Below the pieces are notes generated by a model. The model saw nothing but the letters and a program-made list of their open reading frames with translations, was not told where the DNA came from and made no database searches. Of a stretch of 64,000 nucleotides of DNA, positions 44,876-64,000 are shown one piece after another. The position numbers were made by a program, and so were the translations under genes. The stretch is from Verrucomicrobiaceae bacterium (GTDB lineage: Bacteria > Verrucomicrobiota > Verrucomicrobiia > Verrucomicrobiales > Verrucomicrobiaceae), in contig JACKQF010000005.1 in assembly GCA_024232965.1 (NCBI GenBank), positions 249,632 through 313,631 on the forward strand. The letters run 5' to 3'. Every line of letters starts with the position of its first letter. Position 1 is the stretch's first letter.

Positions 44876-44921
44876 GGAAAGATCAAAATGGAAGAGGGCT
44901 CTGCCGAAGCAGAGCCAAAGA

Positions 44922-46436
44922 CTATTTGTCGGCAGGTCCGTGCATCATTGCATAGCTGATGCCGATGATGGCCAAAGCAGCGATGATCACCCAAATCCAA
45001 ACGACTGTCGTCGCGCTAGCCACTTTGCCAGCACTCCCCTGCACACGGTCAAAGCGGCCCCGAAGGCGACCCTTGCGGAGGAAACCATCGTAATGGCTTT
45101 GCAGCAGGTGCGTTTCCACTTGGCGCATCACATCAAGAACGACGCCGACCAGAATCAAAAGGCTGGTGCCACCGAAGAACTGAGCGGTCTTTGGCGCAAT
45201 CTGCAACACACGGCTAACGATACCCGGAAGCACATAGATAATCGTCAAGAAAATCGCACCGGCGAAAGTCAGACGGCTCATCGTGAAATCGAGGAAATCG
45301 GCGGTCGGCTTCCCAGGGCGGATACCGGGAACATAGCCCCCACTCTTTTTGAGATCCTCAGCAATCTGAGTGGGTTGGAACATCGTTGCGACCCAGAAAT
45401 AGCTGAAAAAGAAAATCAATCCGGCAGAGATCGTGTAATACACCCAACCGGAGTTGATGGTCGCAGAAAAGCGCTGGACCCACTCCACGTGCGGCATCAT
45501 CGAACTCAGGATCTGCGCAGGGAAGAGCAGGATGGCCTGGGCGAAGATGATCGGCATAACGCCCGAATAGTTGATCTTGAGCGGCAGATATTGCGTCTGG
45601 CCTCCGTAAACTTTGCGTCCCACGACACGCTTGGCGTATTGAATTACGATCCTTCGCTGCGCTTCCGTCAGGGCAATCACCCCAGCAATTACGGCAATGA
45701 AAAGAGCCAAAAGCAGGACCAGCATGAAAGCTTTGCTAGGATCCGCCGTCGCACCACCGACGTAGCTTTGCCAAACCTGAACCAGGGCACCTGGCAAGGC
45801 AGAAACAATGTTGACACAAATAAGGAGAGAAACGCCGTTTCCGATCCCACGTTCAGTAATGATCTCACCCAACCACATCATGAGCATGGTGCCCGCCGTG
45901 ATCGTTACGACGGAGCTAAACACAAAGCCAAATCCGTATCCAGGCACCAGAGGTCGCCCCATCTGGTTAATGGTATCCTGAAGACCAGAAAGGAAGATGT
46001 TCTGTCCAGGATTATTCAGCGACTTCGCCAACAGATACCCCTGGAAGACGCAGAGCGCGATCGTCGCCAACCGGGTGTACTGATTGATCTTCTGGCGACC
46101 ACCATCTTCACGGGCGAGCTTGCTCAACGAAGGCACGACGGCCGTCAGTAGTTGCAGCATGATGCTGGCGCTGATGTAGGGCATGATCCCCAACGCAAAA
46201 ATTGCGCACTGCTCAAGCGCACCGCCACTGAAAACGTTCAGCAGGGCAGCAACGGCAGCGGCACCAGATTCGGAATTGGCAGTCCGGTTAGCAATCCAAG
46301 TGCGAAGCACCTCTGGATCGACACCTGGAAGAGTGATGGCAGACCCGATTCGGACGATAACAATCATCCCCAGGGTGAAGAGAATTCTCGACCGAAGTTC
46401 GGGAACTTTTAGGCTATTTGCAAAGGCGGAAATCAT
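44922..46436 (-). CDS. secY: Preprotein translocase subunit SecY
   Basis: 504 aa, 10 TM. Conserved N-terminus LRSRILFTLGMIVIVRIGSAITLPGVD. Confidence 0.9.
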   Translation of the reverse strand: MISAFANSLKVPELRSRILFTLGMIVIVRIGSAITLPGVDPEVLRTWIANRTANSESGAAAVAALLNVFSGGALEQCAIFALGIMPYISASIMLQLLTAVVPSLSKLAREDGGRQKINQYTRLATIALCVFQGYLLAKSLNNPGQNIFLSGLQDTINQMGRPLVPGYGFGFVFSSVVTITAGTMLMMWLGEIITERGIGNGVSLLICVNIVSALPGALVQVWQSYVGGATADPSKAFMLVLLLALFIAVIAGVIALTEAQRRIVIQYAKRVVGRKVYGGQTQYLPLKINYSGVMPIIFAQAILLFPAQILSSMMPHVEWVQRFSATINSGWVYYTISAGLIFFFSYFWVATMFQPTQIAEDLKKSGGYVPGIRPGKPTADFLDFTMSRLTFAGAIFLTIIYVLPGIVSRVLQIAPKTAQFFGGTSLLILVGVVLDVMRQVETHLLQSHYDGFLRKGRLRGRFDRVQGSAGKVASATTVVWIWVIIAALAIIGISYAMMHGPADK

Positions 46437-46535
46437 ATCGTAATGAACAAAAAAACGGCGGGCTTAGCCATCGTACAACCAATTAGGTTGTCAAGAGCGG
46501 CGCCCGCCGAAATTAAAGCTTAGTTTGAAACTGTC

Positions 46536-46982
46536 TCAGGAGTTCGCAATCGATCCACCTGCCTTTTCAATCTTCTCGCGGGCGGACGCACTCACGTTGC
46601 TCACAGAAACAGTGAGTTTACGGGAGAGATCGCCATTGCCAAGAATCTTGATAGCATCGCAGGTCCGATTAACGATACCTTTCTCGCGAAGGGATTCTTC
46701 GTTGACGACATCACCATCTGCGAAAGCCTTTTCAAGGGAGCTAACGTTGACGACTTCAAATTTAAGGCGGAACGCCTCGTTGCTGAAGCCCTTCTTGGGG
46801 AGGCGACGGTGAAGTGGCATCTGTCCACCCTCGAAGCCGGGGCGAATGCCCTTGCCTGCGCGGGCCTTTTGGCCCTTGTGGCCTTTACCAGAGGTCTTGC
46901 CGTGGCCGGAACTCTCTCCGCAGCCGAGGCGCTTACGGCGGTGTTTTGCTCCCGGGCGGGGTTTGACGTCGTGAAGTCTCAT
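46536..46982 (-). CDS. rplO: 50S ribosomal protein L15
   Basis: KRLGCGESSGHGKTSGKGHKGQKARAG...GFEGGQMPLHRRLPKKGF. Confidence 0.9.
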   Translation of the reverse strand: MRLHDVKPRPGAKHRRKRLGCGESSGHGKTSGKGHKGQKARAGKGIRPGFEGGQMPLHRRLPKKGFSNEAFRLKFEVVNVSSLEKAFADGDVVNEESLREKGIVNRTCDAIKILGNGDLSRKLTVSVSNVSASAREKIEKAGGSIANS

Positions 46983-47021
46983 GATCGATATAGGAAGTAT
47001 TGATTAACAGGCAAGCACCAA

Positions 47022-47549
47022 TTAGAGGGCCTTGCGTTCTTTGATTTGTTTGCCACGGGCACGAAAGATATCGTCAGGCTTACGAAGAGCTGCGAGCGCA
47101 TCCAAGGTTGCCTTCACCACGTTTGCGTGGTTGCTGGACCCAAGCGACTTGCCGATCACGTCCTTGACGCCAGCAACTTCAAGCACAGCGCGTGCACCAC
47201 CGCCAGCGATGATGCCCGTACCTGGGGAGGCTGGGCGGAGGAGGATACGGCCACCACCGTGCTCACCCACAACTTCGTGGGGGATTGTGGCGTTGATGAC
47301 GTTCACCGACCGAAGGTTTTTGCGGGAGCTTTCCGTTGCCTTCTTGATTGCATCGGAAACTTCGTTTGCCTTGCCAAACCCACACCCGACGCGACCCTGC
47401 TGGTCTCCTGCGACGACGAGGGCGCTAAAACTGAAACGACGACCACCTTTGACGACTTTGGCGCATCGGTTGATGTGCACCACTTTTTCAATCGTTTCTG
47501 GGCGTGAATCACCGAAACCTTCGGTGGAGTTATTGGAGTCTGCTGCCAT
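47022..47549 (-). CDS. rpsE: 30S ribosomal protein S5
   Basis: [42 protein letters not shown]. Confidence 0.9.
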
Positions 47550-47570
47550 AGAATAAGGGACGAGTACGAA

Positions 47571-47927
47571 TTAGAATTTCAGGCCCTTTTCACGGGCAGC
47601 ATCGGCGAGGGCTTTCACCTTGCCATGGTAGAAGAAACCGCCGCGGTCAAAAACGACGGCTGAAACGTTTGCGGCGACTGCTCGCTCTGCGACAGCCTGC
47701 CCGACCTTGGTCGCACTTGCGACGTTGGCACCCTTGCCATCAAAGCCTTTTTCCTTGGTGGAAGCAGAGCAAATGGTCAGGCCCTTATCGTCGTCGATAA
47801 GCTGGGCGTAAACGTTCTGGTTGGAAAAATTAACAGCAAGGCGAGGGCGCTCAGCCGTACCACGCACCTTCTTACGAATGCGGACACGAATGCTGCTGCG
47901 GATTTGTTTGCGGCTTTTATCGGCCAT
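47571..47927 (-). CDS. rplR: 50S ribosomal protein L18
   Basis: [31 protein letters not shown]. Confidence 0.9.
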
Positions 47928-47957
47928 GATGGGTCTCCTAAAGAAAGTTGAGTTGGA

Positions 47958-48497
47958 TTATTTGACGCTCTTACCAGCCTTGCGGCGGACGTGTTCACCG
48001 GCATAACGGACACCCTTGCCCTTATAAGGTTCTGGTGGGTAGTAAGCCCGGATATCAGCAGCCAGTTGGCCGACGATCTGCTTGTCGATGCCTTCGATGG
48101 CAATCTTGGTATTGTCCGTGACCGTCACCTTCACGCCATCCGGGATTGGATGAAGTCGTGGATGAGACTGGCCAAGGTTGAGGTCGATGTCCGTCCCCTT
48201 GACGGCAGCACGAAAGCCGACGCCCTGGATTTCAAGGTCCTTGCGGAAACCTTGGCTGACGCCTGTCACCATATTCACGAGGAGACGTTGCGTTGTGCCG
48301 TGCATAGCACGCACCGTGCGCTCTTCATTGAGGCGAGTGACGAGAAGCTCCGAACCTTCGGTCTTGACTTCAACGTTTTCCGGAAGGGTCCAGTTGAGTT
48401 TGCCCTTTGGGCCTTCGACTAGGACGCTACGGTCTGCGCCAATCTTGACGCTGACTTTGTCCGGGATACTGATGGGTTGTTTTCCGACGCGAGACAT
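47958..48497 (-). CDS. rplF: 50S ribosomal protein L6
   Basis: MSRVGKQPISIPDKVSVKI...two L6 repeats. Confidence 0.9.
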   Translation of the reverse strand: MSRVGKQPISIPDKVSVKIGADRSVLVEGPKGKLNWTLPENVEVKTEGSELLVTRLNEERTVRAMHGTTQRLLVNMVTGVSQGFRKDLEIQGVGFRAAVKGTDIDLNLGQSHPRLHPIPDGVKVTVTDNTKIAIEGIDKQIVGQLAADIRAYYPPEPYKGKGVRYAGEHVRRKAGKSVK

Positions 48498-48514
48498 GAT
48501 TTAGATTCTCCAGG

Positions 48515-48904
48515 TTACCAGACGGTTGCGAGAAGTTCACCACCGACCTTAGCCTTGCGAGCGCCAGTGCCCGTCATGAGACCACGTGAGGTGGAAAGGA
48601 TTGAAACACCGAGGCCGCCAAGAACGCGTGGAATTTCATCCACGGAGACGTACTTGCGAAGACCTGGCTTGCTGATTCGCTGAAGTTTCCGGATCACGGG
48701 AACGCGGTCTTGATACTTCAGTTTCAGCTTGAGGCGTGGGTGTGTCTCAGAAGTGTCCACTTCATAAGACCAGATGTATCCCTCTTCTTGAAGGATGCGG
48801 CTCAGTTCCGACTTCATTTTGGAGAACGGAGCATAGACGTCTTGCAAACCAGCCTGGCTGGCGTTGCGAATACGGGTGAGGAAATCAGCGATGGGATCGG
48901 TCAT
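48515..48904 (-). CDS. rpsH: 30S ribosomal protein S8
   Basis: MTDPIADFLTRIRNASQAG. Confidence 0.9.
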   Translation of the reverse strand: MTDPIADFLTRIRNASQAGLQDVYAPFSKMKSELSRILQEEGYIWSYEVDTSETHPRLKLKLKYQDRVPVIRKLQRISKPGLRKYVSVDEIPRVLGGLGVSILSTSRGLMTGTGARKAKVGGELLATVW

Positions 48905-48922
48905 GGCGCTGGGTGCGAGGGG

Positions 48923-49516
48923 TTAGGATTGCGCCGCGTTTTCGCCGTTTGAGGCGTCCGCTTTGGGCTGAGTGCGGGTCCGGAATGGCATGCCGAGCGC
49001 AGAGAGAAGCTCACGCGCATGGTCATCATTGTTTGTTGAGGTCACGAATGTGATGTCAAAACCCAGCGTGCGCTTGATTTTGTCCAATTCGATTTCTGGA
49101 AAGATCGACTGATCGGTAACCCCAAGTGTGTAGTTACCACGGCCGTCGAAAGCGCGAGGCGCGACACCACGGAAGTCACGAATACGTGGGACTGCGGTGC
49201 GAACCAAGCGCAGCATGAAGTCATACATGCGACGGCCACGGAGGGTCACCTTGGTTCCAACGGGTTCACCGGCACGCAACTTGAAGTTGGCGATGGCTTT
49301 TTTGCTCATCGTGATCACCGGTTTCTGGCCGGTAATCAGCGCCATCTCGGAGACAGCATCTTCCATTGCCTGTTTCCGCTCTCCCTGGGAGCCGACGGAG
49401 CAGTTGAGGACGATCTTTTCAAGCTTGGGCACTTGGTGTACGTTCTTCAGCGCAAGCTTTTCTTTGAGCTCCGAACGGACCTTGGTTTCGTAATGTGTCT
49501 TTAACAGGGGTTCCAT
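48923..49516 (-). CDS. rplE: 50S ribosomal protein L5 (slightly extended C-terminus)
   Basis: LKNVHQVPKLEKIVLNCSVG...FRGRRMYDF. Only 18 nt separate it from rpsH, so there is no S14 gene. Confidence 0.9.
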   Translation of the reverse strand: MEPLLKTHYETKVRSELKEKLALKNVHQVPKLEKIVLNCSVGSQGERKQAMEDAVSEMALITGQKPVITMSKKAIANFKLRAGEPVGTKVTLRGRRMYDFMLRLVRTAVPRIRDFRGVAPRAFDGRGNYTLGVTDQSIFPEIELDKIKRTLGFDITFVTSTNNDDHARELLSALGMPFRTRTQPKADASNGENAAQS

Positions 49517-49598
49517 GATATTCTTGTTTTGCGTCGCCTTTACCCTACGGCTTGTGAGTGTTCACAAACGGTGGCAGGGGGGGAGACAATTTGTCCAA

Positions 49599-49880
49599 CT
49601 ACTTCTTGCTGGCAACTTTCTTCTTTGTTTTCTTTGGCTCGGCCTTCACTTCCACACGTTTGACGTTGGAAATGTGGATCGGGCCCTCTTTTTCAATGAT
49701 GCCACCCTGCTGACGCTCCTGGCTTGGGCGGACGGCTTTCTTGATCATGCGGACGCCCTCAATAAGGACGCGACCTTTTCCGGGTTGCACTTCCAAGACT
49801 GTTCCTTGGGCTCCCTTGGCGGCTCCGCTCGTGACCTGCACGAGATCACCTTTTCTGACGTGGGTTTTGATTCGGCTCAT
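49599..49880 (-). CDS. rplX: 50S ribosomal protein L24
   Basis: [27 protein letters not shown]. Confidence 0.85.
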
Positions 49881-50245
49881 AGCACTTCTGGGGCGAGGGA
49901 AACGATCTTCATGAAGTTTTTGTCGCGCAGCTCACGAGCTACTGGCCCGAAAATGCGGCTGCCGCGCGGATTGTTGTCTTTGTCGATGATCACAATGGCG
50001 TTGCGATCAAAGCGAAGCACCGAGCCGTCGCTGCGGCGGATTGGATAGGCAGTGCGAACTACGACTGCGCGGACCACCTCACCCTTCTTGACGGCAGCGG
50101 TTGGTGTCGATTCGCGAACGTGGGCAGTGATGATATCACCGACCACGGCGATGCGGGTGTTTTTCTTGCCGAGCACGCCAATCATCTTGGCCATGCGGGC
50201 GCCGGTGTTGTCTGCCACCAGCAATGCGGATTCCATCTGTACCAT
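49877..50245 (-). CDS. rplN: 50S ribosomal protein L14
   Basis: [17 protein letters not shown]... Confidence 0.9.
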
Positions 50246-50301
50246 GAGATATTCTTCCTCTTGTTGTTCTTGAGTTTTTCTAATCGACCGGAAAACCGGT
50301 G

Positions 50302-50589
50302 TTAATGGGAAAGAATCTCCTCCAAGCGCCAGCGCTTCAGCTTGCTCAGCGGGCGTGTTTCGGTGATGCGGACCTTATCGCCGATCTTTGCCTCTTCCTT
50401 CTCGTCATGAGCATGGAATCGGCTGGAGCGACGAACGATCTTCTTGAACTTTGGATGCGGAACGCGGCGCTCGACTTCGACAACAATCGTCTTGTTCATC
50501 TTGTCAGAGACGACCACGCCGACGCGTGTCTTCCGGAGGGAAGCGCGTTGACTGTCAGTCTGGGGGGCGGTTGTGGACTCGTCGCTCAT
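50302..50589 (-). CDS. rpsQ: 30S ribosomal protein S17
   Basis: [32 protein letters not shown]. Confidence 0.85.
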
Positions 50590-50627
50590 GGGTCTAAAAG
50601 AGGGATGGTATGTCTAATGGGGTGCAC

Positions 50628-50825
50628 TCAGGCGGTTTTTTGGGCCCGCTCGTTGATTAGAGTGCGCATGCGGGCGATTTCACGACGCAGCACAGTGAGT
50701 CGGGCGGGGTTTTCGAGCTGACCGCTCTGCTGCTGCATGCGGAGATGGACGGTTTCCAACTTCAGTTCGCGACAACGGTTGTTGAGTTCCTCAACAGAGA
50801 GTTCGCGCAATTCTTTGATTTTCAT
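50628..50825 (-). CDS. rpmC: 50S ribosomal protein L29
   Basis: MKIKELRELSVEELNNRCRELKLETVHLRMQ. Confidence 0.85.
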   Translation of the reverse strand: MKIKELRELSVEELNNRCRELKLETVHLRMQQQSGQLENPARLTVLRREIARMRTLINERAQKTA

Positions 50826-50846
50826 GACAGGAGTTGCAGCAGGAGG

Positions 50847-51266
50847 TTAGTGAGTGGAAGCACGTGTAACGAAACGCGTGCGAAGCCCCATTTTGTTGGC
50901 GGCCAGACGGCACGCTTCACGAGCAGTAGCCTCGTTAACGCCGGAGATTTCAAACAGCATGTGGCCAGGGAGAACAACAGCGACCCAGAACTCTGGGGAG
51001 CCCTTACCCTTACCCATACGAGTTTCTGGCGGGCGCGCAGTCACTGGCTTGTGAGGGAAGATGCGAATAAACACCTTACCCTTACGCTTGAGGTAACGGG
51101 TGATCGCAACACGGCAGGCTTCGATCTGGTTGTTCTTGATCCAACCGCGATCAAGCGTTTGGAGTCCGAACTCGCCGAAGTCGAGCTTGTTGCCGCGGCT
51201 AGCGGTGCCCGCGCGACTGCCGCGCTGGGACTTGCGGTATTTGGTGCGACTAGGAAGAAGAGCCAT
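50847..51266 (-). CDS. rplP: 50S ribosomal protein L16
   Basis: [20 protein letters not shown]... Confidence 0.9.
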
Positions 51267-51305
51267 GATCTAAAAGAGCTAAAGTGAGTTGCTATAAAAA
51301 CGGTT

Positions 51306-52106
51306 TTATTGAGCCGCTGGAACTGCTGAGGGCGCAGGAGTTGGTGCGGCAGCTTCGCCACCCTGACTACCACCGCCACGACTGCCGCCGCGGAAATCAC
51401 CCCGACCGGCACCACGATTGTTATCACGTGGACCACGCTCACGGCGACGGTCCGACTGAGGACGTGTCGCACCGCCTTCGATGGCAGCGGAGGCATTGAG
51501 CCAGACCTTCACACCAATGATCCCGTAAACGGTGCGTGCTTCTGCGAAACCGTAGTCGATGGGGATGCGGAGAGTCTGAAGAGGCACTTTACCAAGTCGA
51601 TACCACTCAGCACGAGCAATGTCTGCTCCACCAAGACGGCCTGCACAACGGATACGGATGCCTTCAGCGCCGGCTTCCATGGCCGTCTGCACGGCACGCT
51701 TCATGGCGCGGCGGAAAGAAATACGGCGCTCAAGCTGAACAGCAACAGTCTCCGCAACCAACTGAGCATCCAAATCGGAGTGCTTAATTTCAAAGATGTC
51801 GATCTTGACCTGGCGGCCTCCGCACATCTCGGAGATCTTCTGGCTCATCACATCGATTTCCTGACCCTTGCGGCCAATCACAAGACCCGGACGTGCCGTG
51901 TGTAGGGTGACGCGAACGAGGTTCCATGCGCGCTCGATGACGATCTTGGCAACTGCGGCTGTGGAGAGCTTGTCCTTGAGGAACTTGCGGATAGCGAGGT
52001 CGCTGTGAAGCGAGTCTGCGTATTCTTTCTCAGGTGCGTACCACTTGGAGCGCCAGTCTTTGGAGACTGCGAGGCGGAAGCCGATTGGATTGACTTTTTG
52101 TCCCAT
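51306..52106 (-). CDS. rpsC: 30S ribosomal protein S3 with an RGG/Ala-Pro-rich C-terminal extension
   Basis: MGQKVNPIGFRLAVSKDWRSKWYA...KH domain. Tail RGAGRGDFRGGSRGGGSQGGEAAAPTPAPS. Confidence 0.9.
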   Translation of the reverse strand: MGQKVNPIGFRLAVSKDWRSKWYAPEKEYADSLHSDLAIRKFLKDKLSTAAVAKIVIERAWNLVRVTLHTARPGLVIGRKGQEIDVMSQKISEMCGGRQVKIDIFEIKHSDLDAQLVAETVAVQLERRISFRRAMKRAVQTAMEAGAEGIRIRCAGRLGGADIARAEWYRLGKVPLQTLRIPIDYGFAEARTVYGIIGVKVWLNASAAIEGGATRPQSDRRRERGPRDNNRGAGRGDFRGGSRGGGSQGGEAAAPTPAPSAVPAAQ

Positions 52107-52141
52107 TGGATGTGGAGGGGTGGGGTGAGTTAAGGAAAGGG

Positions 52142-52618
52142 TTATTCAGCGGCTTCGTCAGCCTTTTTCTTGCGCGGAGCGCGCTTTGGCTTTGCTTCAC
52201 CAGCATCCGCTTTCGCAGGAGTCTTGGCTTTAGCGGCCTTCTTGCCCGGAGCAGCCTTCTTCTCGCCCTCTTCTTCGCCTTCAGCATCTGGGGCACCGAT
52301 CACCACAGTGATGTGGCTGAGGCGCTTTTTGATGCTAGCGGCGGAACCACGAGCACGTGGCATGAAGCGGCTGAGTGATGGCCCAGGAGTCGCCACTGCT
52401 GAGCGAACAACGAACTCCTCTGCGTCCAGTTGATGGTTATTCTCTGCATTCGCAATTGCGGTGCGGAGGACCTTCCCCACGAGGGAGGCGGCCTTTTTCG
52501 GGGTGAAATCAAGGACGCTGAGAGCCTGAGAAACTGGCATGCCGGTAATGGCACGCGTCACTTGACGGGCTTTTTGCGATGAGATACGGGCGTATTTGTG
52601 AACGGAACGCACTTCCAT
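52142..52618 (-). CDS. rplV: 50S ribosomal protein L22 with a Lys/Ala-rich C-terminal extension
   Basis: MEVRSVHKYARISSQKARQVTRAITGMPVSQALSVL...tail GEKKAAPGKKAAKAKTPAKADAGEAKPKRAPRKKK. Confidence 0.9.
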   Translation of the reverse strand: MEVRSVHKYARISSQKARQVTRAITGMPVSQALSVLDFTPKKAASLVGKVLRTAIANAENNHQLDAEEFVVRSAVATPGPSLSRFMPRARGSAASIKKRLSHITVVIGAPDAEGEEEGEKKAAPGKKAAKAKTPAKADAGEAKPKRAPRKKKADEAAE

Positions 52619-52628
52619 AAGAGTCTGC

Positions 52629-53420
52629 TTAGAATGAACTGGTGGCTTCTACCTTTCCGCGGTCTCCGACGCGGACGGTGTCCGCAGCGTTGACTGGATC
52701 CTGAACGACGGCGCCACAAACTGAGTTGCGCACGTCGGATACGAGGACCCGCGCGATGGGCTGGTCCTCCCTATAAATTGTGAATGGCATGCCGGGCTTC
52801 ACGCCATCGCGAACTCCGACATTGAGAACTACAATGCCGTACTCTGGCTTTAGGCTAACGATGCGGGCCTGACCCATGTCCATCGGGGCAGCTTGCGCTG
52901 AACCAGTGCCCGCCTGAATTGTTGCCTCAGCTGCCGAGATAGCTTTTTGCAAGCGAGCTGCTGCGTCCGCATTGGCACCTTGTGCGCTACTACCAAACTG
53001 CAGTGCCGCCTCACTTAGCTCCAAGAGCTGCTCAGCTAGTCTATTCTTTTGGGATTCTACCAAACGCAAGTCAGATAAAGCGGATAACAAGCGATCCTGA
53101 GTCTGATCAACATTGTTTTCCAGAGCACCAATCCCTAGCGCCTCAAGCAGACCGCGGAGACGCTCATAGCGTTCCTTGTAGTCATTGGATTCGGCGTTAG
53201 CCGCAGCAGCACTTTGGGTGAGTGCGTTAACCTTTTCCTCTGCTGCCTTGGCCCTTGTCTCAAGGCCTTGGATGCGTGCATCAGCAACCTCAAGGGTCGT
53301 CTTGAGCTCAAGGACTTCAATCCGAGCGTCACCCCCTTGCGCAATGGCGCGACCAGCCACCATACCTGCCATGAGCAGGAATGCGGAGGTAATGCGGATT
53401 GCGTTAGGTTTGGGCGACAT
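52629..53420 (-). CDS. Secreted coiled-coil protein of unknown function, inserted inside the S10 ribosomal operon between rpsS and rplV
   Basis: 263 aa. Signal peptide (ITSAFLLMAGMVAGRAIAQG). ~150 aa of A/E/L-rich coiled coil. Compact C-terminal beta domain (YGIVVLNVGVRDGVKPGMPFTIYREDQPIARVLVSDV). 10-nt and 24-nt gaps to the flanking ribosomal genes. Confidence 0.6.
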   Translation of the reverse strand: MSPKPNAIRITSAFLLMAGMVAGRAIAQGGDARIEVLELKTTLEVADARIQGLETRAKAAEEKVNALTQSAAAANAESNDYKERYERLRGLLEALGIGALENNVDQTQDRLLSALSDLRLVESQKNRLAEQLLELSEAALQFGSSAQGANADAAARLQKAISAAEATIQAGTGSAQAAPMDMGQARIVSLKPEYGIVVLNVGVRDGVKPGMPFTIYREDQPIARVLVSDVRNSVCGAVVQDPVNAADTVRVGDRGKVEATSSF

Positions 53421-53444
53421 TCGGGTATCCTTGGCCTTTGAAGA

Positions 53445-53723
53445 TTACTTGGCAGCCTTGACGGTGTGGGAACCGTGGGACTTGAACAGACGGGTCAACG
53501 AAAACTCGCCCAGGCGGTGGCCGACCATGTTTTCCGTCACATAGACGCTGACGAAATCCTTGCCGTTGTGAACGAGGAAGGTGTGACCAACCAGATCAGG
53601 GGTGATCATTGAGCTGCGTGCCCAGGTCTTGATAGGGCGTTTGGAGCCTGTTTCGTTCATCTTGTCCACCTTATCGAGGAGGGCTTGTTGGACGAAGGGT
53701 CCTTTTTTGAGTGAGCGTCCCAT
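53445..53723 (-). CDS. rpsS: 30S ribosomal protein S19
   Basis: [19 protein letters not shown]... Confidence 0.9.
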
Positions 53724-53775
53724 GATGTGTAGCTTTGGGTAGGGTTCGGGTAAGGGATGTTAAAGTCAGCGAGGA

Positions 53776-54615
53776 CTATTTCTTGGCATTACGGCCCTGA
53801 ACAATTAACTTGTTAGTCGCCTTCTTCGGATTGCGGGTCTTCTGGCCTTTGACGTGACCCCATGGGCTCTTCAAATGCTGACGACCACCACCGGACTTGG
53901 AACGACCTTCACCTCCTCCGTTGGGGTGATCAATCGGGTTCATCGTCATACCGCGAACGGTCGGACGCACGCCCAGCCAGCGAGTGCGACCAGCTTTACC
54001 GCTCTGGATATTCATGTGGTCAGTGTTTCCGACCTTACCCACAGTGGCGTAGCAGTCTGCGTGAATCTTGCGAATCTCACCAGATGGCATACGAACAAGG
54101 GCGTATGTGCCTTCGCGGTTAGAAAGGATAGCCTCTTGACCAGCAGCACGTGCCACCTGACCACCGCGACCCTTGCGGATCTCAATGTTGTGGATAGCCG
54201 TCCCAAGCGGGATCTTGCGAAGCGGAAGGGCGTTGCCAAGGTCAGGCGCTGCTTTCTCACCAGACATGACGGAGGCGCCGACAGCAAGATTATTTGGGGC
54301 CAGAATGTAGCTACGCTGACCATCCTTGTATTCGATGAGCGCAATGCGCGCAGAACGGTTCGGATCGTATTCGATACCGATGACCTTTGCCGCCTCGTCG
54401 TGACGTTGGCGTTTGAAGTCAATTAACCGATAGCGGCGGTCATGACCACCTCCCATATGACGGCAGGTGATTCTTCCGGTGTTGTTGCGTCCACCGCTGC
54501 GACGAAGCGCAACAGTGAGGCTTTTTTCCGGAGAGTCCTTGGTCACCTCGTCAAAGGTTGACCATTGCTTGTAGCGGTTGGACGGAGTGTTTGGTTTGAA
54601 TGTTTTCAGCGCCAT
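53776..54615 (-). CDS. rplB: 50S ribosomal protein L2
   Basis: [15 protein letters not shown]...[21 protein letters not shown]. Confidence 0.9.
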
Positions 54616-54656
54616 GGCGGTCGCGGGGCTAGACTTTTAAAAGCCGGTTCCTAAGA

Positions 54657-54941
54657 TTAAACGAGATCGATCTTTTCACCGCTTTTCAGGCGGACAAAAG
54701 CTTTCTTCCAATGATTAGTGCGTCCGAAGTCGGCGCGACGTTCACGCTTCTTCTTACCAAAGAAGTTGGCGGTGCGCACTGCTTCGACCTTCTTGCCGAA
54801 GATCTTTTCCACGGCCTGCTGGATTTCCAGTTTGTTAGCCTTGGGATCCACAACGAACACGTATTCGTTGTTAGTCTCACTGAGGCGGGTAGCCTTCTCA
54901 CTGAGACGGATGGTTTTGATCACTGAGTAAAGATCTTTCAT
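54657..54941 (-). CDS. rplW: 50S ribosomal protein L23
   Basis: LYSVIKTIRLSEKATRLSETNNEYVFVVD. Confidence 0.85.
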   Translation of the reverse strand: MKDLYSVIKTIRLSEKATRLSETNNEYVFVVDPKANKLEIQQAVEKIFGKKVEAVRTANFFGKKKRERRADFGRTNHWKKAFVRLKSGEKIDLV

Positions 54942-54943
54942 GT

Positions 54944-55549
54944 TCAGGCAGTCCTCCGTGCGAGGGTTTCAATTGCTTCGGAAGTGAGCAACACCTTGTC
55001 GTAAGCGAGGAGGTGCTCGGAGTTCACTTCGCTAGCAGAAATAAGTTGAACGTTCTGGACGTTGCGAGCGGAGCGGAAGGTCGTTTCGTCGAAAGTTCCG
55101 ACGATCAAGATCTTCTTACCCTCGGTCAGTGCATTGACAGCGCTAACGAAGCTCTTCGTTTTGCCGTCAGCAACGCTGAAGGACTGAATATCAAAGACGC
55201 TACCATCACGGATGCGACCTGTGAGTGCGGTGCGAAGCGCCAACTTGCGGACGTTCTTCGGGATCTTCTTGGAGTAGTCACGCGGACGAGGTCCGAAAAC
55301 GACACCACCACCACTGAAGATGGGGGAGCGGACGGAGCCCATACGAGCGCGGCCAGTACCTTTTTGATTCCAGAGCTTCTTACCGCTGCCGGAGACCTCG
55401 GAGCGATTCTTGGTGCAAGCGGTGCCAGAACGACGGTTGGCGCGGTAGGCGACCAACGTGTCAGCGAGGGCTTGGGAACCCTGGTAGCCGTCAACCAGAT
55501 TGATGCTGGCGGAGCGGGCGGATTCGATGGAAAGAGCTGTTGCAGGCAT
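54944..55549 (-). CDS. rplD: 50S ribosomal protein L4
   Basis: KKLWNQKGTGRARMGSVRSPIFSGGGVVFGPRPR. Confidence 0.9.
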   Translation of the reverse strand: MPATALSIESARSASINLVDGYQGSQALADTLVAYRANRRSGTACTKNRSEVSGSGKKLWNQKGTGRARMGSVRSPIFSGGGVVFGPRPRDYSKKIPKNVRKLALRTALTGRIRDGSVFDIQSFSVADGKTKSFVSAVNALTEGKKILIVGTFDETTFRSARNVQNVQLISASEVNSEHLLAYDKVLLTSEAIETLARRTA

Positions 55550-55568
55550 GTTATGTTTCCTCCTTCAG

Positions 55569-56213
55569 TTATTTGGCCGATTTTTTCTTGGCAGGGCGAA
55601 CTACGACGTAGCTGCCTTTAGAACCAGGGATGGAACCGGAGATGAGCAGGACGCCGTCTTCTGCACGAGCCTGAACAACTTTGAGATTTTGAGTGGTGCG
55701 GCGGACGGTACCGTCGTGACCAGGCATTTTTTGGTTCTTCCAAACCAATCCCGGAGTGGAGCGGCAACCGATAGAACCAGGCCGACGGTGCATCATGTGG
55801 CCATGAGTAGCTGGCTGACCAGCGAAACCATGGCGCTTCATTACCCCTTGAAAGCCTTTGCCGCGGGTAACGCCGATCACATCGACCCACTGCCCCTCGG
55901 TGAACAACTCAGGGCCAAGAACGACATCCGCTGCAGGCATGTCCGCGTCGGACGCGAAGCGGAACTCCTTGAGGACGCGCTTACCGCCGACACCGGCCTT
56001 CTTGAAATGCCCCACCAACGGACGCGTCAGACGCGACTCCCTTTGTTCATCAAACCCGACCTGGACGGCGGAATAACCATCCTTACCAGCCTGTTGCTTC
56101 ACTTGGACCACAGCGTTACCGCTGACGTCAACGACAGTGACTGTGATGGCGTCTCCCTTGGAGTCGTACACCTTTGTCATGCCTAATTTTTTGCCAATCA
56201 ATCCGAGACTCAT
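55569..56213 (-). CDS. rplC: 50S ribosomal protein L3
   Basis: MSLGLIGKKLGMTKVYD...GVTRGKGFQG. Confidence 0.9.
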   Translation of the reverse strand: MSLGLIGKKLGMTKVYDSKGDAITVTVVDVSGNAVVQVKQQAGKDGYSAVQVGFDEQRESRLTRPLVGHFKKAGVGGKRVLKEFRFASDADMPAADVVLGPELFTEGQWVDVIGVTRGKGFQGVMKRHGFAGQPATHGHMMHRRPGSIGCRSTPGLVWKNQKMPGHDGTVRRTTQNLKVVQARAEDGVLLISGSIPGSKGSYVVVRPAKKKSAK

Positions 56214-56248
56214 TGCTTTTCTTGCTCCTGGATACGGTGTTAAAGGAA

Positions 56249-56557
56249 TTAGATGCGGATCGTGATGTCCACGCCGGAAGGAAGATTGAGCTTCTTGAGC
56301 TCATCTACCGTGCGAGAGGTAGGATCAACAATGTCCAACAACCGTTTGTGGGTGCGGATTTCGAACTGCTCTGCCGACTTCTTGTCAACGTGAGGTGAGC
56401 GGTTCACACTGAATTTTTCAATGCGGGTTGGCAGCGGGATCGGTCCGGCGACCCGGGCTCCCGTGCGCTTGGCGGTCTCCACGATATCCGCCGTGCTCTT
56501 GTCGAGCACGCGATAGTCGTAGGCCCGGAGGCGAATTCTGATGCGCTGATTAGTCAT
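56249..56557 (-). CDS. rpsJ: 30S ribosomal protein S10
   Basis: [42 protein letters not shown]. Confidence 0.9.
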
Positions 56558-56603
56558 GGCTTTTGTCCCGCGAGGGTGATTATGATGACGGTTAGGTTAA
56601 AAG

Positions 56604-58748
56604 TTACTTAACGCCACGCTGCTCGACGATCTGCTCGACGATGTTCTGCGGGACTGGTTCGAAGTGCGAGGGCTCCATGCTATATGAGGCACGGCCCGAG
56701 GAGAGAGTGCGGATTGCGGTCGAATAACCAAACATCTCAGCAAGAGGGACCTCCGCTTTGAGAATGGCAGATGCGCCCCGGGTTTCCATACCCTGGATCT
56801 TGCCACGACGCTTGTTAAGGTCGCCCATGATATCGCCTTGGTAGTCTTCTGGTGTGGAGCACTCGACAGCCATGATTGGCTCAAGAAGCTGACACTTGGC
56901 CTTCTTCAGTGCATCCTTGACTGCGAAGATGGCGGCCATTTTGAACGCGTTTTCATTTGAGTCCACTTCATGGCTGGACCCATCCAGGAGATCGATGTGC
57001 ACATCAATGACCGGATATCCAGCAATGATGCCGTTGATTACAGCCTCCATACAACCAGCCTTACAGGCGTTGATGTATTCCTTTGGAATCGTACCACCAA
57101 CAACCTTGTTTTCAACGGTGACACCCTTACCACGCTCGTTTGGAGCGATTTTAAGGATCACGTGGCCATACTGACCGCGACCACCGGACTGCTTGACCAA
57201 CTTCCCTTCGCCATCAGCTTCCTTGGTGAGAGTCTCACGATAAGCGATCTGCGGTTTGCCGGTGTTGGTTTCAACCTTGTGCTCGCGCTTGAGACGATCG
57301 CAAAGGATTTCGAGGTGCAGTTCACCCATGCCAGCAATGATAGTCTGGCCGGTCTCTTCGTCGGTGCGAACGAAGAAGGTCGGGTCTTCCTCGGAGAGGC
57401 GCTGAAGAGCGTTACCCATTTTCTCCTGGTCACCCTTGGTCTTCGGCTCAACAGCCATCGAGATAACAGGCTCAGGGAAGGTCGGCGGCTCTAGGAGGAT
57501 GTCGAAATCCTCGTCACAGAAGGTGTCGCCAGTACGGACATCCTTAACACCGACAAGGGCAGCGATGTCACCGGAGTAACAGGCGTCAATATCCTTGTGC
57601 ACAGCGGCCTGGATCTGAATCAATCGACCAACGCGCTCAGATTTACGTGTGCGCGGGTTGTAAATCGTATCACCCTTTTTGACGCAACCCGAGTAGACCC
57701 GGAAGAACACCAAGCGCCCAAACTTATCGGACCAAAGCTTGAATCCCAGCGCACAGAATTTGCCGGCATCATCAGGAGAAGCCAAGACCTTTACGTTAGG
57801 ATCATCTGCGGACACACCCTCTTGCGGTTCAATGTCGAGAGGGCCCGGAAGATAATCAATGACGGCATCAATGAGATATTGAACCCCCTTATTCTTAAAG
57901 GCAGAACCGCCAGCGATAGGAATGATCTTATTGGCGATAACAGCACGACGAAGAGCTTCCTTGACATCACGGATCGAGATGGGCTTTTCCTCAAGGAACA
58001 TCATGCCCATTTCGTCATCCACGTCACAAATGGCTGCGACAAGATTGTCGTAGGCTTCCTTGCCTTTCTCGATTTCGGCTCCCTCAAGCTCGCGAACGAC
58101 GTACTTTGAACCGAACTTGTCATCGTCGGAGTAAATAATGGCCTTCTGGTTAACCACGTCGATCTGCCCGATAAGGTTATCCTCAGCGCCGATGGGAATG
58201 AGAATAGGCCAGGCGTTTGCGCCCAACTTGTTGCGAACATCAGCAACGACGTTGTCGAAGTTCGCGCCCGTGCGGTCCATCTTATTGACGAACGCGATAC
58301 GTGGAACACGATATTTTTCAGCCTGACGGTAAACGGTCTCAGACTGCGGCTGAACACCAGCCACACCACAAAGCACGAAGATCGCACCATCAAGGACGCG
58401 CAGGGAACGCTCAACCTCAGCAGTGAAGTCAACGTGACCAGGGGTATCAATGATATTGACGCGAATGTCTTCGTTTTCACGAAGTTTGAAGATACCCTCT
58501 TCTTTCAGTTGCTTCCAGGATGCCGTAACAGCGGCGGAAGTGATGGTAATACCACGCTCCTGCTCTTGCTCCATCCAGTCGGTCGTGGCAGCACCTTCGT
58601 GCACCTCGCCGATTTTGTGAATCATGCCGGTGTAGAAAAGCACGCGCTCCGTGAGCGTCGTCTTGCCCGCGTCAATGTGGGCACAAATCCCGATATTACG
58701 GGTGCGCTCCAGAGGGTATTGGCGATTTGGGGAATTGGGGTTGGACAT
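56604..58748 (-). CDS. fusA: Elongation factor G
   Basis: NIGICAHIDAGKTTLTERVL...DTPGHVDF...NKMDR. 714 aa. Confidence 0.95.
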   Translation of the reverse strand: MSNPNSPNRQYPLERTRNIGICAHIDAGKTTLTERVLFYTGMIHKIGEVHEGAATTDWMEQEQERGITITSAAVTASWKQLKEEGIFKLRENEDIRVNIIDTPGHVDFTAEVERSLRVLDGAIFVLCGVAGVQPQSETVYRQAEKYRVPRIAFVNKMDRTGANFDNVVADVRNKLGANAWPILIPIGAEDNLIGQIDVVNQKAIIYSDDDKFGSKYVVRELEGAEIEKGKEAYDNLVAAICDVDDEMGMMFLEEKPISIRDVKEALRRAVIANKIIPIAGGSAFKNKGVQYLIDAVIDYLPGPLDIEPQEGVSADDPNVKVLASPDDAGKFCALGFKLWSDKFGRLVFFRVYSGCVKKGDTIYNPRTRKSERVGRLIQIQAAVHKDIDACYSGDIAALVGVKDVRTGDTFCDEDFDILLEPPTFPEPVISMAVEPKTKGDQEKMGNALQRLSEEDPTFFVRTDEETGQTIIAGMGELHLEILCDRLKREHKVETNTGKPQIAYRETLTKEADGEGKLVKQSGGRGQYGHVILKIAPNERGKGVTVENKVVGGTIPKEYINACKAGCMEAVINGIIAGYPVIDVHIDLLDGSSHEVDSNENAFKMAAIFAVKDALKKAKCQLLEPIMAVECSTPEDYQGDIMGDLNKRRGKIQGMETRGASAILKAEVPLAEMFGYSTAIRTLSSGRASYSMEPSHFEPVPQNIVEQIVEQRGVK

Positions 58749-58796
58749 GGGAACTTTGAAGAAACTTAAAAGGGAATCCGAAGAAGGAGGAAAAGA

Positions 58797-59270
58797 CTAC
58801 CAGCGGAAGTGAGCGAAGGCGCGGTTTGCCTGAGCCTGCTTGTGAACGTCATCACGCTTGCGGACCGCAGCACCTTGACCAGTCGCCGCATCCTTGAGCT
58901 CGTTAGCGAGAGCGCGATGCATCGGCACACCCTTGCGACCACGAGCGTAACCAACGATCCAGCGCATCGCCAGGGACTCCGAGCGAGCAGGAGCAACTTC
59001 AAGCGGCACTTGATAAGTTGCACCACCAACGCGGCGAGCCTTCACTTCAACGCGAGGCTTGGCGTTTTCGATGGCGCGAGTAACGAGCTCAAGCGGATCA
59101 ACGGCCTCAGATTTCTCATTGAGGGTCTCAATCGCCGAATAGACGATGCGCTCCGCGAGCGACTTCTTCCCGCTCTGCATGACGCGGTTGATGAGATGCC
59201 CAACGATATCACTATCATAGCGCTGATCTTTATTGACGGGCTTGTCGTAGACTCTTTTCCGGCGGGCCAT
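58797..59270 (-). CDS. rpsG: 30S ribosomal protein S7
   Basis: MARRKRVYDKPVNKDQRYDSDIVGHLINRVMQSGKKSLAERIVY. Confidence 0.9.
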   Translation of the reverse strand: MARRKRVYDKPVNKDQRYDSDIVGHLINRVMQSGKKSLAERIVYSAIETLNEKSEAVDPLELVTRAIENAKPRVEVKARRVGGATYQVPLEVAPARSESLAMRWIVGYARGRKGVPMHRALANELKDAATGQGAAVRKRDDVHKQAQANRAFAHFRW

Positions 59271-59336
59271 ATGCTTGGGATGAAAAGGGGTGTGTAATCG
59301 GGGAGAAAGCGGGCCGCGAAACCGCGACCCATTAAA

Positions 59337-59750
59337 TTATTTCTTGCCTTTGCCTTTGACTGGCGCTGCTGCTGCACCTGGCTTTGGACGTTTTGCGCCG
59401 TATTTGGAGCGACCACGACGGCGCTTGTCGATACCCTGGCAATCAAGCGTTCCGCGAACAATGTGATAGCGAACACCCGGAAGATCCTTCACACGACCGC
59501 CACGAACCAGAACGATGGAGTGCTCTTGAAGGTTGTGACCCTCACCGCCGATATAGGCGATCACTTCGAACCCGTTTGTGAGACGAACCTTTGCAACCTT
59601 ACGCAAAGCGGAGTTCGGCTTCTTCGGCGTGCGGGTCATCACCTGCAGGCAGACGCCGCGGCGCTGAGGGCACTTGTCCAAAGCGGGTGACTTGGACTTG
59701 ACCGCTTTCTCTTTGCGGCCGTGTCTGACGAGTTGATTGATGGTGGGCAT
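59337..59750 (-). CDS. rpsL: 30S ribosomal protein S12 with a Lys/Gly/Ala-rich C-terminal extension
   Basis: [15 protein letters not shown]...[22 protein letters not shown]. Tail [18 protein letters not shown]. 137 aa versus about 124 typical. Confidence 0.9.
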
Positions 59751-60044
59751 GGTATAAAAGCTATTTCCGTTTAGTAACCATCGGTGTTAGTGACCGGGGG
59801 AGACGGAGTGCCTTCCACTCTGTTATTGAGTGGCCATGCACAGTCTTTTCCGGTAACTGCACCGATAAAAAGGAGCCGCTATCGAGGCGGACCTTTCTCC
59901 GACACCTGATGAGGTGGCCGGGAGTTTGGGAGCGCGCACAATGCAGTGTCTGGCAAGCGGCGCAAGGTTTTTTTCATTTAATTTTGTTTTTTCTCTCCGA
60001 AAAAGGGATTTTTTTCTGAGTCACCAGAGTTTTCGTCAAGGCTA

Positions 60045-61565
60045 TTATTCCAACTCGATGCTGGCTGGCGGTTTTGTCGAGATATCGTAAAACACACGAT
60101 TGATTCCGCTGACACTATTGAGAATGCGATTCGAGGCGGCACGCAAAACGTCGTATGGAAGCTCTACCCAGTCTGCGGTCATTGCATCTTCACTAATGAC
60201 TGCCCGAAGGGCGATCGCCTGCTCGTAGGAGCGCTCATCGCCCTTCACTCCGACTGTTTTGACGGGAAGCAGAGCTGCGTATGCCTGCCAGACCCGGTCA
60301 TACCATCCGCTACGACGCAGTTCACCGATGAAGATAGCATCTGCCTGACGCACGATCTCCAGTTTCTCCGGCGTAATATCGCCGGGCACACGGACCGCGA
60401 GACCTGGACCCGGGAATGGATGACGCCAAAGAGCATGGTGCGGGATCCCGAGCGTTGCGCCCAGGGCGCGAACTTCATCTTTAAATAGTTCGGCGAGAGG
60501 CTCGAGGACTTTTCCCTCTTTTTGCAACTCCAGAATTCGATCCACGCGATTGTGGTGCGTTTTGATCTTGGAGGCAATAGATCCGCTGGAGGCACTTTCG
60601 ATGACGTCTGGATAGAGCGTGCCCTGCGCGAGCAGTTCCACCTTGTCTGCCACCCCCCAGAACAGATCGACGAACAGATCGCCAATGATCTTGCGCTTCT
60701 GCTCAGGATCGGTCACACCTGCCAACTGGCCGAGAAAACGCTCGGAAGCGTCAATCATCTCGATGGGGACCCCGACTGCTTCAAATTGAGTTTTGACCTC
60801 GGCGGACTCTTCCAGACGCATGAGCCCAGTATCGATAAAGATGCAGCGAACCTTCACTCCCGCGCTATGAAGAAGAACGGCAAGGACCGTTGAGTCGACT
60901 CCACCGGAGACGCCACAAACAACTTCACGTCCGCCGACCTTCTCGCGAATGGACTGCAGCATTTGATCCTTGAAGACGGCAATGTCGAAACGCGCGAGTT
61001 TGGCACCACTTCCGACCAGGAAATTTTTCAGGATGCGGCTACCCTCGTGAGAATGCGTCACTTCGGGGTGAAACTGAATGCCCCAGCAGCGCTCCGTCCA
61101 GCGGAGAGCAATGGGCACCGCATCCTCGTTGGTTGCAATCACTTCGGTGCCCTCCGGGAGATCGGAAACAGTGTCGGAGTGACTCATCCAAATCTGGGAC
61201 TCATGTGGAAGTCCATCAAAGAGCACCTTTGCCTCCTTCACGACCAATCGAGCGGGGCCGTACTCGCGCGTGACACCAGGCTTCACGGAACCGCCATGCT
61301 TGATGTTTAGCAACTGCATGCCGTAGCAGACACCCAGAATAGGGACGTCGAAGCTCTTGAGTTTTTCAAAATCTACGTCTGGAGCATCCACCTCTGAAGT
61401 GCTGCGGGGCCCACCAGAAAGGATAATGGCTCCGGGATTTGTTAGGTTGGCAAGGTGCTGAGGCGGATACAGATGAGCCAGAAAACCCAGCTCGCGGACG
61501 CGACGGACAATCAACTGACTGTATTGGGAACCGTAATCGAGTACGGCGACTTCGTTATCGTTCAT
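60045..61565 (-). CDS. guaA: GMP synthase (glutamine-hydrolysing)
   Basis: VAVLDYGSQYSQLIVRRVRELG (GATase)...SGGVDSTV (PP-loop)...C-terminal dimerisation domain. Start set at MNDNEV (internal Met of a longer ORF). Confidence 0.9.
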   Translation of the reverse strand: MNDNEVAVLDYGSQYSQLIVRRVRELGFLAHLYPPQHLANLTNPGAIILSGGPRSTSEVDAPDVDFEKLKSFDVPILGVCYGMQLLNIKHGGSVKPGVTREYGPARLVVKEAKVLFDGLPHESQIWMSHSDTVSDLPEGTEVIATNEDAVPIALRWTERCWGIQFHPEVTHSHEGSRILKNFLVGSGAKLARFDIAVFKDQMLQSIREKVGGREVVCGVSGGVDSTVLAVLLHSAGVKVRCIFIDTGLMRLEESAEVKTQFEAVGVPIEMIDASERFLGQLAGVTDPEQKRKIIGDLFVDLFWGVADKVELLAQGTLYPDVIESASSGSIASKIKTHHNRVDRILELQKEGKVLEPLAELFKDEVRALGATLGIPHHALWRHPFPGPGLAVRVPGDITPEKLEIVRQADAIFIGELRRSGWYDRVWQAYAALLPVKTVGVKGDERSYEQAIALRAVISEDAMTADWVELPYDVLRAASNRILNSVSGINRVFYDISTKPPASIELE

Positions 61566-61651
61566 GAGTGGACAGAGAGGGGGGATTTTTGGGGAGTCGC
61601 AGTGGAACGCATGTTTGCCTCCAGTCAAGAGCGACCCCGCACGGGGAGCGA

Positions 61652-63112: not shown

Positions 63113-63195
63113 GTTCCATTAAAGCGCGGACAAGACGCCTGTCATCTGAAAAGATAAAAGACATCACGTACCCTTCCCGGGCCAAGTCCATCGAA

Positions 63196-63927: not shown

Positions 63928-64000
63928 AACAAAAAGGAAATAATTATACTAACTGAAAAGTGTTACATGCCCCACTTCGACCCCAACAATGGGATCGTCG

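Follow-up and report, generated by a model that had tools for sequence, protein, structure and literature searches.

The window analysed here, a 64,000-nucleotide (nt) stretch of a Verrucomicrobiaceae metagenome-assembled genome (MAG; GenBank assembly GCA_024232965.1, contig JACKQF010000005.1), carries a 263-residue open reading frame (ORF) on the minus strand at positions 52629-53420, between the S10-operon genes rpsS (ribosomal protein S19) and rplV (L22). This ORF is a real gene, and its family occupied the slot between S19 and L22 in 166 of the 166 related loci examined (82 close and 84 distant), showing that the insertion is fixed across a deep lineage and is not local to the window genome. 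The order L2-S19-L22-S3 is common to bacteria, archaea, and organelles, and, being so widely shared, it is seldom interrupted in a stable manner. Ribosomal-protein operons with passenger genes are already known, as is the barrel fold described below; the novelty lies in this architecture in an uncharacterised family and in the invariant insertion of that family into the L2-S19-L22-S3 core. The full-text literature searches made yielded no description of the family, and neither Pfam nor NCBIfam holds a model for it.

A conserved gene between rpsS and rplV

In the ORF list, the reading frame starts with ATG and ends with a TAA stop codon at 52629-52631. It is separated by 24 nt from rpsS and by 10 nt from rplV, and both gaps, the strand, and the coordinates agree with those given in the original prediction, which had been made from the sequence of this stretch. 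The identical protein is deposited at NCBI as hypothetical protein H7A55_16920 of a Verrucomicrobiaceae MAG. The surrounding region is a standard fusA-S10-spc superoperon, in which the minus-strand order is fusA, rpsJ, rplC, rplD, rplW, rplB, rpsS, the ORF, rplV, rpsC, rplP, rpmC, rpsQ, rplN, rplX, rplE, rpsH, rplF, rplR, rpsE, rplO, secY, and map. The ORF is the sole foreign element within the S10 block.

Substitution rates were compared between the ORF and its nearest relative, which is 83% identical (locus L003). The nonsynonymous rate (dN) was 0.123 and the synonymous rate (dS) 1.79, giving a dN/dS of 0.068, in the same range as that of the flanking ribosomal genes; purifying selection acted on the amino-acid sequence over its whole length. 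The first protein search returned 253 homologues, with identities of 52-60% in Prosthecobacter and its relatives. A profile of the C-terminal domain was also searched against 1.84 billion cluster representatives (50%-identity clusters) and matched 1061 of them with E<=1e-3, of which 201 reached E<=1e-10. Most of the matched representatives were 240-300 residues long with the domain at the C-terminus, and they were full-length homologues sharing the N-terminal hydrophobic segment, two motifs in the helical region, and the barrel motifs, while identity to the window protein fell to about 20%. Across the loci the ORF measured 241-344 residues (median 261-266). The low dN/dS, the 253 homologues, and the identical synteny in related loci indicate that the 263-residue ORF is a gene and did not arise by chance.

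The position of the family was examined in two sets of loci. For the close set, one genome per GTDB species was scanned; relatives were detected in 97 species and 80 loci were kept, all of Verrucomicrobiaceae type (for example, Prosthecobacter and Brevifollis), to which two Prosthecobacter loci were added. The order L2-S19-ORF-L22-S3 was found in all 82, as far as the contigs reached. The distant set came from a metagenome scan of one distant clade with the pattern RVVDVR[ED][RK][IF], which yielded 326 relatives; 80 loci were kept and four more were examined individually. Here S19 lay upstream in 60 of 60 testable cases and L22 downstream in 76 of 76. The four members examined individually are just 20-33% identical to the window protein, and each sits between S19 and L22. 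The median spacer between the S19 stop codon and the start of the ORF was 23 nt in the close set and 4 nt in the distant set, and that between the end of the ORF and the L22 start codon was 26 nt and 20 nt, respectively. Thus, the comparison with the S10 operons of relatives suggested in the original prediction revealed the same insertion at every locus. The insertion itself stood as first noticed; its extent had been underestimated, since it characterises a deep lineage instead of one genome.

The depth of this lineage was gauged from the ribosomal proteins. The window L2, S19, L22, and S3 were 51-54% identical to those of Escherichia coli, and L2 was 80-97% identical to that of the close loci. 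For the distant loci, the identities were mostly 62-70% (L2), 70-78% (S19), and 62-74% (S3), with L083 as an outlier at 56-63%. The distant loci are therefore clearly closer relatives of the window than a proteobacterium, yet lie far outside the family. The identity of the C-terminal domain tracked that of L2 and S3 (Spearman 0.76, n=106, a value inflated by the two-cluster structure of the sample), which suggests, as far as sequence comparison goes, vertical descent of the ORF together with the operon. Moreover, the slot has been kept while the sequence diverged to about 20% identity, which speaks for a housekeeping role that has stayed constant and is bound to this location. The insertion thus offers a clean synapomorphy-type marker for the deep lineage.

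Two loci deserve separate mention. The 239-residue protein P0256 begins with 55 residues of S19 and continues with the family protein, of which the last two thirds are present. It may have arisen by chimeric assembly, by a deletion, or by true fusion of the neighbouring genes, and is in any case a further trace of the adjacency. Locus L074 (CALSBJ010000060.1) is labelled as an Akkermansia muciniphila MAG, and its S19 and ORF are 89% and 51% identical to those of the window. These identities resemble those of Verrucomicrobiaceae loci, so the label looks wrong.

Other passengers of ribosomal-protein operons include secY, map, adk, infA, and rpoA. Like the window ORF, they are co-oriented and tightly spaced with ribosomal genes and show ordinary codon adaptation. 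However, those genes belong to the spc and alpha operons and have roles in translation, secretion, or transcription, whereas the window ORF breaks the L2-S19-L22-S3 core and encodes an apparently exported, structural-looking protein. It adds a further example to a short list. A lineage-restricted "signature protein" has been described for the Planctomycetes-Verrucomicrobia-Chlamydiae group (the CT421.2 family), with lengths of 53 to just over 80 residues (PMC3444138). Identity with this protein was rejected, as it is too small compared with 263 residues.

Domain architecture and fold

The N-terminus was evaluated with a heuristic of our own that combines simple hydropathy with a small-x-small pattern. 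A signal-peptide-like N-terminus, as put forward in the original prediction, was detected in 114 of 114 close homologues and in 85 of 94 diverse representatives, and the nine exceptions look like truncated gene calls. The window protein has no lipobox cysteine, and a loose lipobox pattern occurred in merely 6 of the 114 close members. Of 41 representatives of the "VVDVR" clade, 12 (roughly a third) had SLT or SLS among their first 70 residues. In the sequences inspected (for example, P0160, P0190, P0198, P0212, P0239, P0241, and P0270), it directly followed the signal peptide (...RSLTDSE..., ...SSLSDSD...) and might serve for sorting, processing, or modification; it does not occur in the window protein.

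The signal-peptide-like segment is followed by a region composed of 21% Ala, 15% Leu, and 11% Glu, in which the full-length AlphaFold model placed helices at residues 32-101, 104-117, 122-144, and 151-172, ahead of the beta domain at 185-257. Two motifs recur family-wide in this region, SxAAANAExxxxKERYExLRGLLEALG (residues ~70-96) and QxRLLxALSDLR (~108-119); in the homologues found by the profile, the consensus was SLAxANxEA...LxxxxEALG and LxxRLLxAxxDLR. The original prediction described a coiled coil of about 150 residues rich in Ala, Glu, and Leu. Long helices of that composition are indeed predicted, and from the two features together we infer the coiled coil itself. The mature protein contains 33 D+E and 26 K+R and is thus acidic.

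The compact C-terminal beta domain, also part of the original prediction, is the best conserved part of the protein; G202, G210, and R231 were invariant across 45 diverse members. When the domain was modelled alone with 91 diverse sequences, the model had six strands and a mean predicted local distance difference test score (pLDDT) of 87.3. Foldseek matched it best to an LPHT ring chain (E 2e-4) and to FlgT (3w1e; E 4.5e-4), and the closest folds overall were the FlgT C-domain, MreC, and TsaP. Comparison of the domain profile with PDB sequences pointed to TsaP (E 3e-4) and to a MexC-like adaptor (E 3e-4). The modelled domain thus has the beta-roll/barrel fold of the FlgT C-domain. The curated sequence models were more reserved. 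On the window protein, Pfam and NCBIfam returned merely coiled-coil noise and sub-threshold matches to FlgT_C and MreC. FlgT_C (PF16538) scored 13.5 bits (E 0.099), below its 27-bit gathering threshold, and was detected in 6 of 45 diverse members at E<0.01 (best E 0.0016, 19.3 bits). For MreC (PF04085/PRK13922), the window protein had no Pfam match and an NCBIfam E of 7.5, and relatives scored 16-22 bits against a cut-off of 28. By structural modelling, the domain belongs among the periplasmic beta-rolls of the FlgT-C/TsaP/MreC type, and the family fails every curated sequence threshold.

The same beta-roll domain was observed in two to four tandem copies in other proteins (P0144, P0215, P0216, and P0174), and some of the proteins with three or four copies are lipoprotein-like. 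P0144, a four-repeat relative with a lipoprotein-type signal, was the sole one to reach the FlgT_C threshold (27.3 bits), and P0216 has an N-terminal coiled coil. The genomic context of P0144 and P0216 (loci L168 and L169) was uninformative.

The likeness to characterised proteins is confined to single modules. The Vibrio flagellar H-ring protein FlgT (PDB 3w1e, 8z5n) shares the predicted C-domain fold; in contrast, the window protein lacks the FlgT N and M domains and has a 140-residue helical region instead, and the family gene lies in the S10 operon at all 166 loci and not in a flagellar locus. TsaP, which forms a belt around the type IVa pilus secretin PilQ, consists of LysM and two FlgT-like C domains, whereas the window protein has a single barrel and a coiled coil in place of the peptidoglycan-binding LysM domain. 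EnvC (signal peptide, coiled coil, C-terminal LytM) has the same layout, an exported coiled coil followed by a small beta domain, but the C-terminal domain of the window protein is not of the LytM/M23 type. The full-length family profile matched a "Peptidase M23" chain, 8tzk_E, which we take to be an EnvC (E 9e-5); the match covered the signal peptide and the first helix alone and is probably compositional, confined to the coiled-coil part.

Several further candidates were rejected. The Skp/OmpH-like and FlgA/SAF-like folds proposed in the original prediction were not among the best structural matches, and neither a Skp/OmpH chaperone nor a SAF/FlgA-like domain gained support from family or fold searches. 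The layout of a periplasmic adaptor (MFP/HlyD, EmrA), with lipoyl, beta-barrel, and membrane-proximal domains and an alpha-hairpin inside the lipoyl domain, was not recognised either.

Expression and proposed role

The ORF has the sequence features of an S10-operon member, namely the same strand, short spacers, and no apparent internal terminator or promoter; no consensus promoter or intrinsic terminator was detected on the minus strand between 52600 and 53450. Because the spacers are so short, co-transcription with the S10 operon is the simplest reading and is likely, and in this respect the original prediction is plausible, the gaps being tight in both clades. It had further proposed stoichiometric coupling with ribosomal proteins, which was not borne out by codon usage. 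The codon adaptation index (CAI), calculated leave-one-out with the translation genes of the window as reference, was 0.606 for the ORF, below all 20 of the translation genes scored (19 ribosomal-protein genes and fusA, 0.654-0.776), and it matched those of the other non-ribosomal passengers secY (0.627) and map (0.596). The dS of the ORF (1.79) was higher than that of its neighbours (0.52-1.32) and, like the lower CAI, gives no support for coupled amounts. The view that such a position is odd for an exported protein was overstated, because secY, a membrane protein gene, rides the same superoperon in the window.

Published RNA sequencing (RNA-seq) of A. muciniphila MucT lists Amuc_0298 (L22), Amuc_0299 (uncharacterised, B2UMT5), and Amuc_0300 (S19) in this order, and Amuc_0299 is transcribed (PMC6538878, Table S2). 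From mucin to mucin-free medium, the counts of Amuc_0299 changed from 98 to 196 (2.0-fold), whereas those of S19, L22, and L2 changed from 32 to 241, 32.5 to 369, and 81 to 1780, respectively, and the other operon genes changed by 9.6-fold to 41-fold; among all the S10-operon genes listed besides Amuc_0299 (Amuc_0295-Amuc_0305), the change ranged from 7.4-fold to 41-fold (PMC6538878, Table S2). This difference likewise speaks against fixed stoichiometry. In mucin, counts were three times as high for Amuc_0299 as for S19 and L22. Provided that Amuc_0299 belongs to the family, its mRNA is present and the ratio to that of its neighbours is not fixed. Protein-level evidence for Amuc_0299 was sought in published supplements, and none was found.

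Taken together, the reading that we tentatively favour, at somewhat less than an even chance, is that the protein is an exported periplasmic coiled-coil scaffold whose barrel docks on an envelope machine and whose gene is a vertically inherited passenger of the S10 transcript. In this scheme, the ORF would form part of the S10 transcript, and its translation, begun at its own Shine-Dalgarno site, would be less intense than that of the ribosomal genes, similar to secY and map further along the superoperon. The protein would cross the inner membrane via Sec, after which the helical region would oligomerise into a coiled-coil stalk, and the beta-barrel could serve, by analogy, as a head that docks onto a partner in the periplasm or envelope. 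In each of its three characterised relatives, the module engages a large envelope machine: the flagellar H/T ring in the case of FlgT, the PilQ secretin in that of TsaP, and PBP2 in that of MreC. The FlgT-type C-domains of TsaP form the belt around PilQ (bioRxiv 10.1101/2020.05.29.123786). Riding the S10 transcript, the supply of the protein would roughly follow growth rate, as for a housekeeping envelope component and in parallel to secY. A bolder extension, which seems rather unlikely, is that Verrucomicrobia-type bacteria, Akkermansia among them, have in this protein an essential, lineage-defining constituent of their envelope, with its synthesis tied to ribosome production via an ancient insertion into the nearly invariant L2-S19-L22-S3 block. 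If this scheme were true, the periplasmic coiled-coil scaffold with its FlgT/MreC-type head would be of a new kind, and there would be a direct genetic link from growth rate to envelope construction. The envelope biology of the phylum is poorly known, and the family is a candidate for one of its core envelope proteins. For A. muciniphila, a culturable and medically relevant organism, a genetic system has been reported, which would provide a testable case if Amuc_0299 is a member.

Several points weigh against the scaffold reading. The full-length AlphaFold monomer had a pLDDT of 59, a low confidence at which it was not used for fold searches, and the coiled-coil oligomer is putative. Signal-peptide cleavage is predicted with our home-made heuristic, and the segment may be an uncleaved signal anchor instead of a cleaved peptide. 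Amuc_0299 is assigned to the family by its position alone. Its mRNA appears out of step with those of its neighbours, which points to an internal promoter, to selective stability of this mRNA segment, or to its processing; given these Akkermansia counts, the coupling to growth rate may be loose.

Among the alternatives, we considered whether the protein is an MreC-like regulator, that is, a membrane-anchored or periplasmic coiled-coil dimer whose barrel contacts a pair of class B penicillin-binding protein (PBP) and shape, elongation, division, and sporulation (SEDS) protein, so that wall growth keeps step with ribosome synthesis. MreC is among the closest folds. However, MreC has two tandem barrels after its coiled coil instead of one, no Pfam or NCBIfam MreC model reached threshold, and FlgT is the better structural match. 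The mreC gene is adjacent to mreB and mreD, whereas the family gene always lies between rpsS and rplV and never adjoins mreB. Two unannotated genes also follow A. muciniphila mreB (Amuc_0540) at the usual mreC/mreD position, hinting at a canonical MreC elsewhere. We therefore regard this explanation as distinctly unlikely.

It is also quite doubtful that the protein functions like Braun's lipoprotein, as a spacer or tether that is abundant in the periplasm; the coiled coil would then set or stabilise the distance between envelope layers, and the highly transcribed operon would give a high copy number. Placement in the S10 operon should ensure strong transcription, some database sources label homologues as "Lpp", and residues 12-88 gave a weak NCBIfam match to the Lpp/OprI alanine zipper (NF040598; E 0.0056). 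The match scored 17.2 bits against a cut-off of 43. Lpp/OprI proteins are ~60-80 residues long and have an acylated lipobox Cys and a C-terminal Lys, whereas the window protein, at 263 residues, has no lipobox cysteine and ends in ...EATSSF. In addition, its helices are broken at 102-103, 118-121, and 145-150, and its codon adaptation is ordinary, unlike that of a very abundant protein.

The possibility that the main role is exerted in cis, with translation of the ORF or the mRNA structure tuning the distal S10 operon from rplV onwards and the protein being secondary, is very improbable. The short spacer to rplV (10 nt here, median 20-26 nt) would allow translational coupling, and the mRNA level of the Akkermansia segment differs from that of its neighbours. 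Against this, purifying selection acts on the amino acids along the whole length (dN/dS 0.07), the protein motifs and the folded domain are conserved down to 20% identity, and no Rfam element was detected in 46000-64000.

That the ORF encodes a lineage-specific ribosomal or ribosome-associated protein is barely credible. Its position inside the S10 operon, and nothing else, favours this idea, whereas the signal-peptide-like N-terminus found throughout the family, the acidic mature protein, the codon adaptation below all translation genes scored, and the lack of similarity to ribosomal protein families in Pfam, NCBIfam, or PDB oppose it. Among PDB ribosome chains, the family matched only eL42, at chance level (E 0.25). 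These data agree with the non-ribosomal assignment made in the original prediction. Finally, the reading named there as a possible refutation, a spurious ORF within a long rpsS-rplV spacer, found no support and has a practically negligible chance of being correct, given the dN/dS of 0.068, the kept length (241-344 residues), the hundreds of homologues, the confidently predicted fold of the C-terminal domain, and transcription of the positional counterpart Amuc_0299.

Annotated features and neighbouring genes

The positions of the ORF, of the segments of its product, and of the adjacent genes are listed below.

Table 1. Features of the rpsS-ORF-rplV segment (positions are those of the window)
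Feature	Position	Strand	Description
rpsS (S19)	53445..53723	minus	Upstream neighbour in each related locus with sufficient contig
AAGGA	53428..53432	minus	Shine-Dalgarno-like, 7 nt 5' of the ATG, within the 24-nt rpsS-ORF spacer; read from the sequence, putative function
263-residue ORF	52629..53420	minus	Complete; uncharacterised family, known only between rpsS and rplV
Residues 1-27	53340..53420	minus	Signal-peptide-like N-terminus: K4, R9; hydrophobic I10-G23; A25-I26-A27 before Q28
Residues 32-172	52905..53327	minus	Ala/Leu/Glu-rich helical region, four predicted helices
Residues 173-184	52869..52904	minus	Linker, poorly conserved, low confidence
Residues 185-257	52650..52868	minus	Predicted six-stranded beta-barrel/beta-roll, best conserved part; GMPF and VxDVR motifs
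rplV (L22)	52142..52618	minus	158 residues, Lys/Ala-rich tail; downstream neighbour in each related locus with sufficient contig

Terminator-like hairpins were observed on the plus strand at 52172-52184 and 52471-52488, antisense to rplV. The region contained 6 terminator-like sites compared with a mean of 12.7 in shuffled sequence, so these hairpins are probably due to chance.

The superoperon (44042-58748, minus strand) lacks tuf between fusA and rpsJ, rpmD (L30) between rpsE and rplO, and adk between secY and map. Likewise, no rpsN (S14) is present between rplE and rpsH, which are separated by merely 18 nt (48905-48922); in the close locus L001, too, L5 and S8 lie too near each other for S14 to fit. 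E. coli L22 has 110 residues, whereas the longer window L22 carries a C-terminal tail of ~45 residues rich in Lys, Ala, and Glu. The window S3 (rpsC, 51306-52106) has 266 residues, with an Arg/Gly-rich tail followed by an Ala/Pro-rich tail. In related loci, the size of L22 ranged from 111 to 214 residues, and S3 reached up to 345 residues in L083-L086.
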